Assembly (NCBI GenBank): GCA_030390025.1
Contig: JASTWF010000328.1
Span: forward strand, 1-64,000
Direction of reading: 5' to 3'
DNA length: 64,000 nucleotides
DNA from: Squalus acanthias
Lineage: Eukaryota
Within the stretch, counting starts at the first letter, position 1; each line of letters begins with the position of its first letter. This document shows positions 5,549-62,200 of the stretch, piece by piece. The notes under the pieces were generated by a model, which saw nothing but the letters and a program-made list of their open reading frames with translations, was not told the DNA's origin and searched no databases. The position numbers and the translations under genes are program-made.

Positions 5549-6661
5549 GTGAACTCACTGGTGTGTCCGCAGGTTGGACGACTGAGTGAATCCCTTCCCA
5601 CACTCGGGGCAGGTGAACGGCCTCTCCCCAGTGTGAATTCGCTGGTGTGTCAGCAGATCCTTTGTGCTTTTAAAGCTCTTCTCACACTCAGAACATTTAA
5701 AAGGTCTCTTATTAGTGTGAACAAGTTGGTGTGTCCGGAAGTTGGATGACTGAGTGAATCTCATCCCACACACAGAGCAGGTGAACGGCCTCTCCCCTGT
5801 GTGAACTCGCTGATGTGTCAACAGGTTGGATGAACGAGTGACTCTCTTCCCACATACGGAGCAAGTGAACGACCTCTCCCCGGGACCGGTGAGCTCGCTG
5901 GTGTGTCAGCAGGTTGGATGAATGAGTGAATCCCTTCCCACATACGGAGCAAGTGAACGACCTCTCCCTGGTGTGAACTCGCTGGTGTTTCAGTAGGTTG
6001 GATGAGTGGGCAAATGTCTTTGCACAGTGAGAGCACCTGAACGGTGTCTCGTCACTGTGAACTCGCTGGTGTGTCAGCAAGTGGTTGGATTCAGAAAATC
6101 CCTTCCCACACAATGAGCAGCTGAATGGCCTCTCCCCAGTGTGAATTTGCTGGTGTTTCAGCAGGTTTGATGATTCTTTGAAAGTCTTCACGCAGTGAGA
6201 GCAACTGAACGGCCTCTCCCCGGTGTGACTGCGTCGATGAGTTTCCAGCTGGGACGGGTAATTGAATCCCTTCCCACAGTCCCCACATTTCCACGGTTTC
6301 TCCGTGGTGCGGGTGTCCTTGTGTCTCTCCAGCTTGGACGATCAGTTGAAGCCTCGTCCACACACAGAACACGTGTATGGTTTCTTCCTGCAGTGAATGA
6401 TGCGACTTTTTTCAGGCTGTGTAACTGGTTAAAGCTCTTTCCACAGTCAGTGCACTGGAACACTCTCACTCGGGTGTGTGTGTCTCAGTGCTTTTCCAGT
6501 CAAACTGATGTCTGAAATCTTTTACCACAGATAAACATTTCTCCTTCCACATTCAAAGGCCGATGATATTCAGGTCCTGATGAATGGAGTGACTCTGTCA
6601 GATCTTGACGTGATGTTTGGTTTGAGTTTGCGGTGTGTAAATGCTGCCCTTCTCACAGCCT
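5549..6661 (-). pseudogene. C2H2 zinc-finger locus A, disrupted (about 9 fingers after the KPWKC start region)
   Basis: HTGERPF-linked fingers split across ORFs 5712-6191 and 5555-5821 (frameshift ~5890). TGA in the last finger. ACG at the family start site. Family acceptor ctccttttacag and family 3' UTR present. Confidence 0.88.
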
Positions 6662-6726
6662 GTAAAAGGAGTTTGCAAAAGTCATCATTGCAAAGCAAGG
6701 ATAGAAAATCGCAACAGACAATTCTA

Positions 6727-6947
6727 GGTGCTGACACTGGTTGGGTTCAGTTCTACACTCACTGGTTCCTCTCCCTCTCCTCCCCTAAAGGTGCTGACTC
6801 TGGCTGGGTTCAGTTCTACACTCACTGGTTCCACTCCCTCTCCTCCCCTGAAGGTGCTGACTCTGGCTGGGTTCAGTTCTACACTCACTGGTTCCCCTCC
6901 CCAGAAGGTGCTGACTCTGGCTGGGTTCAGTTCTACACTCACTGGTT
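6727..6947. repeat. 63-bp ZNF-associated minisatellite, about 4 copies
   Basis: Unit ctgaaggtgctgactctggctgggttcagttctacactcactggttcccctccctctcctccc. Confidence 0.92.
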
Positions 6948-6948
6948 C

Positions 6949-7530
6949 ATAAGAACATAAGAAATAGGAGCAGGAGTGGGCCTCATCTCAGTCTGACCCC
7001 TTATTCTGAGACTGTGATCCCTGGTTCTGGACTCCCCAGCCAGGGGAAACATCCTCCCTGCATCTACCCTGTCAAGCCCTGTAAGAATTTTGTATGTTTC
7101 AATGAGATCACCTTTCATTCTTCTAAACTCCAGAGAATATAGGCCCATTCTACTCAATTTCTCCTCATAGGACAAACCCCCCATCCCAGGAACCAGTCTG
7201 GTGAACCTTCGTTGCACTCCCTCTCTGGCAAGTATATCCTTCCTTAGGTAAGGAGGCCAAAACTGTACACAATACTCCAGGTGTGGTCTCACCAGGGCCC
7301 TATATAATAGCAGTAAGACGTCTTTACTCTAATACTCAAATCCTCTTGTAATAAAGGCCAACATACCATTTGCTTTCCTAATTGCTTGCTGTACCTGCAT
7401 GTTAACTTTCAGTGATTCGTGTACAAGGACACCCAGGTCCCTCTGAACACCAACATTTCCCAATCTCTCACCATTTAAAAAACTTGGACATATTACATAC
7501 TCAAATCCTCTTGTAATAAAGGCCCACCTT
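6949..7530 (-). mobile_element. CR1 LINE 3' fragment in the putative intron of ZNF A
   Basis: ORF RPHLEYCVQFWPPYLRKD...; tail at 6949; internal deletion of the 3' UTR. Confidence 0.9.
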
Positions 7531-60650: not shown

Positions 60651-60998
60651 AGAAATTCGCCCGAGATGACGATAGAGACCAAAGTGCCGTTTGCCCCTCT
60701 CAGTGTGGCCCTGAAGGACTGTGTCCAGGCTGAAGTTCTGTTCCCGCCGTACGATCCTCCCCCAGATTGTCCTTTCTGAGCTCCAGCCAGGTGATGCTAA
60801 ACACTCAGGTGGGAAAGACAAAAATCTACAACAATGTGTTTAAAACAAAACTGATTTATTTCACATATATCCAGAATATTAAACTCCAGCCCAGTTACAG
60901 GAATTACTGACATCAGCAGAAACAACTGTCAGAATGAACATGGTTCAGTCCTGGATGTGATTAACAGCAGCAATAACAGCAGAATCCAACCCCTGCAG

Positions 60999-61682
60999 TC
61001 ACTTGTGAACTCGCTGGTGTCTCAGCAGGTTAGATGACTGAGTGAATCCCTTCCCACACACGGAGCAGGTGAACGGCCTCTCCCCAGTGTGAACTCGCTG
61101 GTGTCTCACCAGCTCTGCAGAACTTTTAAAGCTGTCCCCACAGTCAGAGCATTTAAAAGGTCTCTCCCCAGTGTGAACTCGCTGGTGTGTCAGCAAGTGG
61201 GATGACTGAGTGAATCCCTTCCCACATACGGAGCAGGTGACTGCGTCGATGAGTTTCCAGCTGGTATGGGTGCTTGAATCGCTTCCCACAGTCCTCACAT
61301 TTCCATGGTTTCTCTGTGGTGCGGGTGTCCTTGTGTCTCTCCAGGTTGGACGATCAGTTGAAACCTCGTCCACACACAGAACACGTATACGGTTTCTCCC
61401 CGCTGTGAACGGTGTGATGTTTTTTCAGGCTGTGCAACTGGTTAAAGCTCTTTCCACAGTCAGTGCACTGGAACACTCTCACTCGGGTGTGTGTGTCTCG
61501 GTGCTTTTCCAGTCACACTGATGTTTGAAATCTTTTCCCACAGACAGAACAGAAAAACATTTCTCCTTCCACATTCAAAGGCCGATGATATTCGGGTCCT
61601 GATGAATGGAGTGACTCTGTCAGATCTTGATGTGATGTTTGGTGTGAGTTTGCGGTGTGTAAATGCTGCCCTTCTCACAGCC
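60999..61682 (-). pseudogene. C2H2 zinc-finger locus K (4 fingers, frameshifted)
   Basis: TGAs at 61513 and 61354. ACA at the family start site. 20-nt linker deletion at ~61240. Close inverted paralog of B. Confidence 0.82.
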
Positions 61683-61739
61683 TGTAAAAGGAGTTTCCAA
61701 AAGCCATGACTGTGAGTCCGGGATAGAAATTGCCAAGAT

Positions 61740-62200
61740 TCTCTCCTCCTGGTTCCTGGCCAAGGGGGCCGCGCATGCGCCCTGCTGCCCCCTGAGCCTG
61801 TCCAGATGGCGGCCGTTAAACCGGGCCTGTCACCGAGAGAAAGCCCAGCAGCTGCCGCCCCGCTCGGGGCAAACGCCCGGCCCGGAGGCTGTTGTTCGGG
61901 GCCTGAGGCCCACCCCGGGTGTTTGTGAAGCGGATAATGTTGAGTGTTTTAATAATGGGGCCTGGGGCCGCACTCGGGGTGTGTGCAGCCCGCGTCCCCC
62001 CGGAGTTTAATAACCCGCTCCCTGAGCTCTCTCACTGATGTGTCAGCGGCTGCTGCCAAGGTCCGCGCATGCTCAGCTCACACTGCCCGGGTGATTGACG
62101 GGAGCTCCGGACCAATAGAAGAGTGGGGCGGGGCTGGAGGACCGAGCGGGCGGCGGGTCCTCCAACTAATGGCGGTGCAGCAAGGGGGCGGGGCCTGGTG
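61740..62200 (-). promoter_or_regulatory. Putative promoter and first exon of ZNF K (one arm plus partial core)
   Basis: Reverse complement of ~8295-8720. Confidence 0.7.

Follow-up and report, generated by a model that had tools for sequence, protein, structure and literature searches.

The stretch of Squalus acanthias DNA considered here (assembly GCA_030390025.1, contig JASTWF010000328.1, positions 1 to 64,000; hereafter the window) holds a dense cluster of C2H2 zinc finger (ZNF) genes, and the question that it raises is whether genes made of fingers and little else, many of them broken, can constitute a working gene family. An earlier note had described eleven loci assembled from one cassette inside a nest of retroelements, and had proposed an independent chondrichthyan system directed against transposons, with an effector that is absent, supplied in trans or encoded on an unseen exon. 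The cluster is read here, with a probability of roughly 60%, as a shark-lineage family of finger-only tandem C2H2 genes under birth and death. The unit of this family, comprising a CpG-island promoter, an intron and one last exon that contains a leader, a finger array and a 3' untranslated region (UTR), has been copied by local duplication and inversion, and copies have been broken by insertions of long interspersed nuclear elements (LINEs), by deletions and by minisatellites.

Eleven finger loci of two types

A six-frame scan of the window yields 90 canonical C2H2 fingers, and a relaxed scan yields 118 finger-like units over 11 loci, 96 of them inside the arrays proper, which bears out the number of loci first proposed. 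The loci are labelled A to D and F to L, E being the 5' half of F and not a twelfth gene; the D, G, I and J of the earlier note apparently correspond to D, H, J and K here. Nine of the eleven arrays contain 5 to 15 finger units (I and L are smaller) with linkers of the TGE[KR]P type, and the parts of the cassette are paralogous well beyond chance (blastn E values from 1e-8 to 1e-77 per part). The array frame is unbroken in C, D, H, J and K, and with five arrays intact and six broken the description of the loci as about half disrupted was accurate. In type 2 (D and J, with F similar) the leader runs into the first finger, and D and J have an ATG at the residues MEG-; type 1 (A, B, C, G, H, K and L, and a truncated I) is marked by two additional fingers, by stops and by the lack of an ATG at that point.

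The leader

The leader is dead sequence, not an effector, and protein constraint is absent from it throughout, the three fossil fingers of type 1 included. A TGA between FQTSV and LEKH is present in all seven type-1 leaders, another between GFN and SSNL in six of the seven (H has GGA, and the truncated I also carries the stop), and a third two codons past the acceptor, between L and EG, in all six type-1 copies that keep the acceptor. Frameshifts lie in the leader upstream of intact arrays in C, H and J. The 75 distinct changes in 119 leader codons are spread over first, second and third codon positions as 27, 22 and 26, and 20 are synonymous where 18.7 would be expected. The maximum-likelihood ratio of nonsynonymous to synonymous rates (omega) is 0.94 (confidence interval, CI, about 0.57-1.5), or 0.82 when ten copies of the 38-codon leader are taken. 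Because the TGA codons are inherited, the frame is shifted in several copies, omega is close to one and no codon position is favored, the proposal that the leader is a coding or effector module cannot be sustained.

The FQTSV stop is found outside this genome as well. It terminates gene models P0053 (Pristiophorus) and P0058 (Heterodontus), and these genera are taken here to represent the two main shark superorders, so that the stop would be common to both; one unnamed record has Trp at this position. There is no pyrimidine-rich acceptor between the last TGA and finger 1, and the leader has no match in Pfam. As a candidate effector the leader was also compared with Atlas, where the best score was 0.81 and a KRAB cluster ranked third at 0.77, within the range of shuffled sequences, and the candidate was dropped.

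Constraint and turnover in the finger arrays

The arrays are under selection, of a purifying kind on the finger scaffold, and several are probably still alive although their leader is dead. With the terminal branch of each leader as the clock, the seven type-1 arrays have accumulated 11 disabling changes where 33.1 would be expected (p = 8e-6), or, without a rough term for indels, 7 stops and ligand losses against 21.8 (p = 2e-4). Damage in B, G and L is about at the neutral level, whereas that in C, H and K, a trio chosen as intact, is not (a single stop or ligand loss where 13.0 would be expected, p = 3e-5). Among the 53 fingers of the five intact loci omega is 0.04 at the zinc ligands, 0.12 in the core and 0.70 elsewhere, rising to 1.77 at positions -1, 2, 3 and 6 (p = 4e-4, with a shared synonymous rate), and a tree-free count agrees with this pattern over the finger positions. 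Positive selection at the DNA-contact residues is thereby suggested, not established.

Compared with the flanks, finger number and recognition residues evolve several times as fast, and the zinc ligands and hydrophobic core are kept. Locus L is a recent sister of B. Divergence between the two is 1.6% over exon 1 plus intron, 3.0% over the leader and 3.3% over the 3' flank, but reaches 14.7% between best-matched fingers (L has 4 fingers and B has 9); in finger 1 they are separated by 11 changes, every one in altered codons. Similarly, D and J differ by 1.1-6.1% in their flanks (1.1% in the 3' flank) and by 13% in their fingers, where contact codons hold 39 of the 98 differences. There are 46 distinct contact fingerprints among the 53 fingers, and 63 of the 96 array fingers are most closely related to a finger of a different locus, a distribution that would fit the exchange of fingers among paralogues.

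The search for an effector domain

No KRAB, SCAN or BTB sequence had been visible at first inspection, and Pfam searches of the window and of shark homologues likewise return none. Between positions 1 and 49940 the search covered 330 of the 332 stop-free stretches of at least 36 codons that remain once LINEs, tandem repeats and arrays are masked (two finger arrays were dropped and two trimmed), and the matches were to fingers, a LINE esterase and, below threshold, tandem repeats. The non-array parts of 49940-64000, searched in all six frames, matched only C2H2 and reverse transcriptase. A turtle KRAB protein (P0017), the positive control, scored KRAB at 1.6e-20. No PR/SET domain was found in the window or in members of the family from other sharks.

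A profile search with the leader returned 34 matches among 1.84 billion representatives. Two are spurious; of the other 32, the 25 that are named all come from sharks (nine species), five are unnamed and two were left without look-up. None of these leader homologues contains KRAB, SCAN or BTB. When the stop-masked leader of K served as the query the matches were mostly generic ZNFs, with sharks contributing 4 of 52. Finger 1 as query gave 2473 matches among long proteins, and none of the 14 shark proteins among the 120 listed carries KRAB, SCAN or BTB, whereas by hand count about 66 of the other 106 listed carry KRAB or SCAN; among proteins of similar length the three domains are absent from all 31 shark matches of 118. 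Ray matches to finger 1 have generic identity only.

In shark homologues the sequence ahead of the leader differs from model to model and is mutually unrelated, and the residue pattern before the first Glu of the leader (two conserved residues, the one before them variable) in most models fits a phase-2 splice at the acceptor ttttacag. The sole shared candidate for an upstream exon has 12 codons in phase 0, out of register with the phase-2 frame of the leader, and would therefore supply at most a short upstream open reading frame (ORF). Several annotated shark models begin at MEKPWKC or MEG-, and annotated homologues in general have N-terminal extensions that are unrelated, or none. Since only these 12 out-of-phase codons are shared upstream and the homologue N-termini are unrelated or absent, a conserved effector exon that has escaped notice, one of the options first offered, is unlikely.

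Expression and the start of translation

Transcription would proceed from CpG islands of the housekeeping type, and a non-coding first exon would be spliced to the single last exon. Translation would begin just ahead of the array, at MEG- in type 2 and at MEKPWKC in type 1, and the product would be a bare array of 8-15 fingers and little else. New specificities may then arise through duplication and finger exchange, with most copies dying.

The type-1 start is a puzzle within this scheme. The first codon of MEKPWKC is ATG in B, G, H and I, ACG in A, C and K, and ACA in L, and the shark models examined have Met at this position in ten cases and Thr in seven. As the ATG of B and the ACA of its sister L are each one CpG transition away from ACG, the latter looks ancestral. 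In C and K translation may start at this ACG or at an upstream CTG in strong context.

Competing explanations

A number of observations weigh against a living finger-only family. Six of the eleven loci (A, B, F, G, I and L) are broken by stops or frameshifts. Locus C has no in-frame Met at all and K has none before finger 1, yet in the two together a single stop or ligand loss is counted where 7.1 would be expected (both were chosen as intact); this could reflect initiation at a non-AUG codon of strong context, a splice that escaped notice, a function only recently lost, or damage removed by conversion. If B and L do point to ACG as the ancestral codon, the first translation of type 1 is not thereby explained. 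The structural positions of the fossil fingers have an omega of 0.33, with a wide interval (CI 0.08-1.5). At the contact codons omega falls to 1.06 (CI about 0.69-1.5) when these codons are given their own synonymous rate, which is 1.9 as compared with 1.3 for other non-structural codons, and mutation hot spots or conversion of short patches would therefore account for the excess no less well than positive selection; recombination among fingers, moreover, violates the tree model. Lastly, the disablement test assumes that an array is as old as its leader, and conversion from working paralogues could purge damage.

Several of these points would follow if the cluster were a passive, mostly dead repeat family, spread by segmental duplication of the cassette, with a finger constraint left over from a small number of ancestors that worked long ago. 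The broken loci, the inherited leader stops, the lack of an AUG in C, the contact omega of 1.06 and the damage in B, G and L, which is about what neutrality predicts, all accord with such a history. It is nevertheless judged unlikely, given the deficit of damage in C, H and K and in the seven loci taken without selection, the retention of CpG-island promoters, and the fact that arrays diverge faster than their flanks and yet keep their ligands. Working finger-only proteins might instead bind satellites, other ZNF genes, gene promoters, or RNA or protein partners. The present data name no target, and the ZAD-ZNFs of Drosophila are described as an expanded family that is not enriched on transposons (PMC10547256); fast contact turnover and copy numbers in the thousands fit the pursuit of fast-evolving repeats, which is circumstantial evidence, and a set of targets other than transposons seems rather improbable.

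The remaining two explanations would add coding sequence to the array. An effector exon that is short, unmodelled as FiNZ is, or located beyond the window might be spliced into the array past the stops. The FiNZ domain has only 28 residues and is reported to lack similarity to known domains (PMC10547256), so an exon of that kind could slip through a Pfam scan whose shortest stretches had 36 codons, and splicing at these loci is inferred from sequence. Promoter and acceptor, however, are only about 350-750 bp apart in B, D, K and L, and the coding sequence shared between them amounts to the 12 codons in phase 0; the leader-bearing shark models have mutually unrelated sequence upstream, and a pyrimidine-rich acceptor by which the stops could be bypassed is wanting between the last TGA and finger 1. 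Such an exon is accordingly quite improbable. Recoding of the conserved TGA, through readthrough, selenocysteine or A-to-I editing to Trp, would allow leader and fossil fingers to be translated, and the presence of the FQTSV stop in every type-1 leader and at the end of the Pristiophorus and Heterodontus models, together with the single Trp record, could be cited in its favor. Up to three stops would have to be recoded in a stretch with an omega of 0.94 and with private stops and frameshifts of its own, which makes recoding very improbable indeed. The finger-only family under birth and death thus remains the preferred reading.

Relation to known ZNF systems and possible function

The cluster appears to be a finger-only shark variant of the known class of tandem poly-ZNF families under birth and death, and not a group of KRAB-, SCAN-, BTB- or FiNZ-ZNF genes. 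It resembles the tetrapod KRAB-ZNF (KZFP) clusters, where C2H2 fingers likewise stand in tandem within a single last exon, duplication is clustered, copies are often broken, and variable contacts sit on a conserved scaffold; unlike them, it has no KRAB in the window or in shark homologues, and the shark protein appears to begin at the array. KRAB families are reported to be lost or absent in cartilaginous fishes (PMC8455134). The FiNZ-ZNFs of cyprinids (PMC10547256) offer a second parallel, having expanded within one lineage into dense clusters that amount to hundreds or thousands of genes, independently of KRAB and with diversified contact residues, but FiNZ is a conserved coding first exon for an acidic domain in cyprinids, whereas the stretch shared by the shark genes at the N-terminal side is a non-coding fossil whose named homologues (25 of 25) are from sharks. 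SCAN-ZNF, ZBTB and PRDM9-type proteins share the C2H2 array with the family and differ from it in their SCAN, BTB and PR/SET domains; two skate matches to finger 1 do carry PR/SET, at a generic identity of 61-63%.

Members of the family already exist in RefSeq as shark models named 'zinc finger protein 239/850/271-like', with 70-88% identity in finger 1, the same leader and the same starts. They come from Heterodontus, Pristiophorus, Scyliorhinus, Mustelus, Cetorhinus, Carcharodon, Stegostoma and Chiloscyllium, and the D/J subtype has a counterpart in Heterodontus (P0098). Their names were assigned automatically from human genes, and many are chimeric or translate leader and intron; automatic shark gene models should be used with this in mind. 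What is already known thus includes these members, the large ZNF counts of sharks and the loss of KRAB in cartilaginous fishes, and what appears to be new is the finger-only architecture and the fossil leader, of which no account was found in a literature search whose coverage mostly excludes subscription journals. The system first proposed as chondrichthyan stands as an independent shark birth-and-death family with no known effector, the wider name being too broad for a leader with named homologues in sharks only.

As to function, sequence-specific binding to fast-evolving repeats, chiefly retroelements, is the most likely role, one to which about even odds may be given, with repression achieved by occupancy or by a finger-bound cofactor instead of a KRAB-type domain. 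TRIM33 and TRIM24 have been put forward as candidate partners (PMC10547256). Repeats are the best guess because of the analogy with KRAB- and FiNZ-ZNFs and because ZNF number tracks retroelement number across animals, as reported in PMC10547256, and transposon targeting is on these grounds plausible. The repression of transposons by FiNZ-ZNFs was tested there in zebrafish and not in sharks; the seven species with predicted motifs include no shark, the main text does not mention sharks, and motif predictions agreed with measurement for only 11 of 236 motifs (PMC10547256). The retroelements around the loci were considered as support for targeting and ruled out as such, the LINEs being inserted into the genes themselves (F, C and D/J) and retroelements being prevalent among cartilaginous-fish repeats generally.

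The supplement to the same study gives 703-3586 ZNF ORFs for sharks, 1223 for a skate and 475 for Callorhinchus (PMC10547256), so that shark counts are among the largest recorded, and this in animals without the KRAB system. If the main shark family is finger-only and under selection, an effector domain would not be needed to sustain poly-ZNF expansion, and the family would bear on transposon silencing before KRAB and TRIM28. A bolder and doubtful extension is that sharks possess a transposon-silencing arsenal of at least 1000 effector-less bare-array genes, in part starting at ACG or CTG behind a fossil-finger 5' UTR, in which CpG decay of ACG repeatedly makes AUG and the fingers themselves repress. 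The shared leader and 3' UTR provide handles (probes, morpholinos, profile searches) for annotation and knockdown across the family.

The cassette and its loci

The cassette had been claimed for every locus; its parts are indeed shared, but unevenly. The promoter core (CCAAT-GC-CCAAT) has seven copies in the window, not eleven, and the exon-1/donor piece has five (A, B, H, I and L). The acceptor ttttacag occurs at 8 of 11 loci and in the split E/F gene, with a variant, ttttatag, in K, and is absent from H and I. Nine loci have a whole leader; in E/F a LINE interrupts it, and I has lost it by deletion. The shared 3' UTR is present at 8 of 11 loci, D and J both ending in the same antisense CR1 tail and H having a 67-bp minisatellite in its place about 15 bases past the stop. 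The pairs A/B, C/D and H/I stand head to head on shared CpG islands, with an observed/expected CpG ratio of 0.68-0.97 against 0.44 for the window.

On the reverse strand, A (5395..6659, type 1) has a dead leader, nine fingers, the shared 3' UTR and an ACG at the start position, and its array contains a frameshift and a stop. A bidirectional CpG-island promoter (8190..8432), with identical 52-bp exon-1/donor pieces on either side (the exon being putative), separates A from B (8782..10040, forward, type 1). The dead leader of B (8782-9145) contains three TGA codons and is followed by an ATG at 9146, nine fingers with a frameshift after the first, and the shared 3' UTR; an out-of-frame Met could still give B a product of 252 residues, in which three ligands are lost. 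In C (14231..15408, reverse, type 1) a frameshifted leader precedes an intact eight-finger array that runs from ACG 15046 to a stop at 14372, followed by the shared 3' UTR. Its intron (15625..22532, reverse) has been expanded by the 63-bp minisatellite described below and by inserted elements totalling about 6 kb, one of them a near-complete CR1-type LINE (17047-20991), and the 5' part of this intron adjoins the promoter of D. The head-to-head C/D promoter region (22532..23200), a CpG island, holds motifs that we take to be YY1- and NRF1-like. Locus D (23607..25086, forward, type 2) has an open leader, an ATG at 23716 (MEGES) and an ORF of 456 aa with about 15 fingers, and stops within the antisense CR1 tail.

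A promoter core 99% identical to that of D (30234..30344, forward) has no finger exon directly behind it and is a candidate promoter of E/F. Another CpG island, at 32770-33060 upstream of E, lacks the core and may have served E/F or a lost gene. E itself (33887..33980, forward) is the acceptor and 5' leader half of gene F, and F (38700..40158, forward) holds the remaining leader, 14 finger units with a frameshift, and the shared 3' UTR. Locus G (44158..45245, reverse, type 1) has a partial promoter core, a deleted exon-1 donor, an ATG start, an array with a stop and a frameshift, and the shared 3' UTR. In H (46145..47260, reverse, type 1) an intact nine-finger ORF of 252 aa starts at ATG 46903, and 63-bp repeats stand in place of the acceptor. 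The H/I bidirectional promoter (47798..48040) may also serve J. I (48041..48491, forward) has lost its leader and has a stop in finger 1, a frameshift and a short shared 3' UTR, and J (48618..49940, forward, type 2) has a 4-nt leader deletion upstream of ATG 48723 (MEGES) and an intact ORF of 405 aa with about 13 fingers. The promoter core and intron of K (53581..54325, forward) lead to its last exon (54326..55674, forward, type 1), which has a dead leader with three TGA codons, ACG 54681, an intact ten-finger array with the first Met inside finger 1, and the shared 3' UTR. L (60855..62170, reverse, type 1) retains promoter core, exon 1, intron and dead leader, with ACA at the start position, four fingers with a frameshift after the first, and the shared 3' UTR.

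The first linker, after finger 1, has been hit separately in B, I and L (at 9225, 48231 and 61244) by three distinct deletions of about 14, 11 and 20 bases. All three shift the frame in the same direction, and in B the upstream out-of-frame Met then reads through the array. Of four contig sets covering 47480-56200, three were guessed to be RNA and one is of unrecorded kind. In the three, summed contig depth is far lower over the intron of K than over the leader, but these sums mix in contigs from paralogues and from other species, and they were not used as evidence; among the 15 contig joints listed, with a further 1301 outside the listing, there is no informative splice.

A CpG-rich stretch upstream of the acceptor (8600-8764, 53874-54004 and 22706-22759) also contains motifs that are presumably YY1- and NRF1-like. 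Its translated form is recognizable in models from Pristiophorus, Heterodontus and Scyliorhinus (P0053, P0058 and P0080), and the non-coding cassette would on that account be old.

Retroelements and minisatellites

Retroelements are reported to be the dominant repeats of cartilaginous fish (PMC10380595). Coding remnants of LINEs make up 22,724 of the 64,000 bases of the window (35.5%). The full-length CR1-type element in the leader of F (33981..38699, forward) has an esterase ORF1, an endonuclease, a reverse transcriptase and a 6-bp target-site duplication; it is near-intact, starts with a 37-bp tandem array on the 5' side, has an ORF2 that contains few stops, and appears to be a recent insertion. 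Among the CR1 remnants are fragments at 26950-28560 (reverse transcriptase with a C-terminal finger-like motif) and 13570-14028 (endonuclease), which we take to be RTE-type. Two inverted CR1 3' ends at 1687-2939 form an inverted repeat of 81% identity that spans about 1.25 kb.

The 63-bp minisatellite of type-1 introns is found in the intron of A (6726..6948, reverse) and upstream of C (15625-16388) and H (47258-47462), with a single copy near 54080. It expands independently, contains donor-like and acceptor-like motifs, and in H replaces the acceptor. Unrelated minisatellites lie at 11238-11831 (46 bp), 12091-13390 (40 bp), 30792-32080 (54 bp), 42449-42746 (39 bp), 45456-46130 (67 bp) and 56233-56497 (39 bp), and the 46-bp array flips its orientation at 11400.

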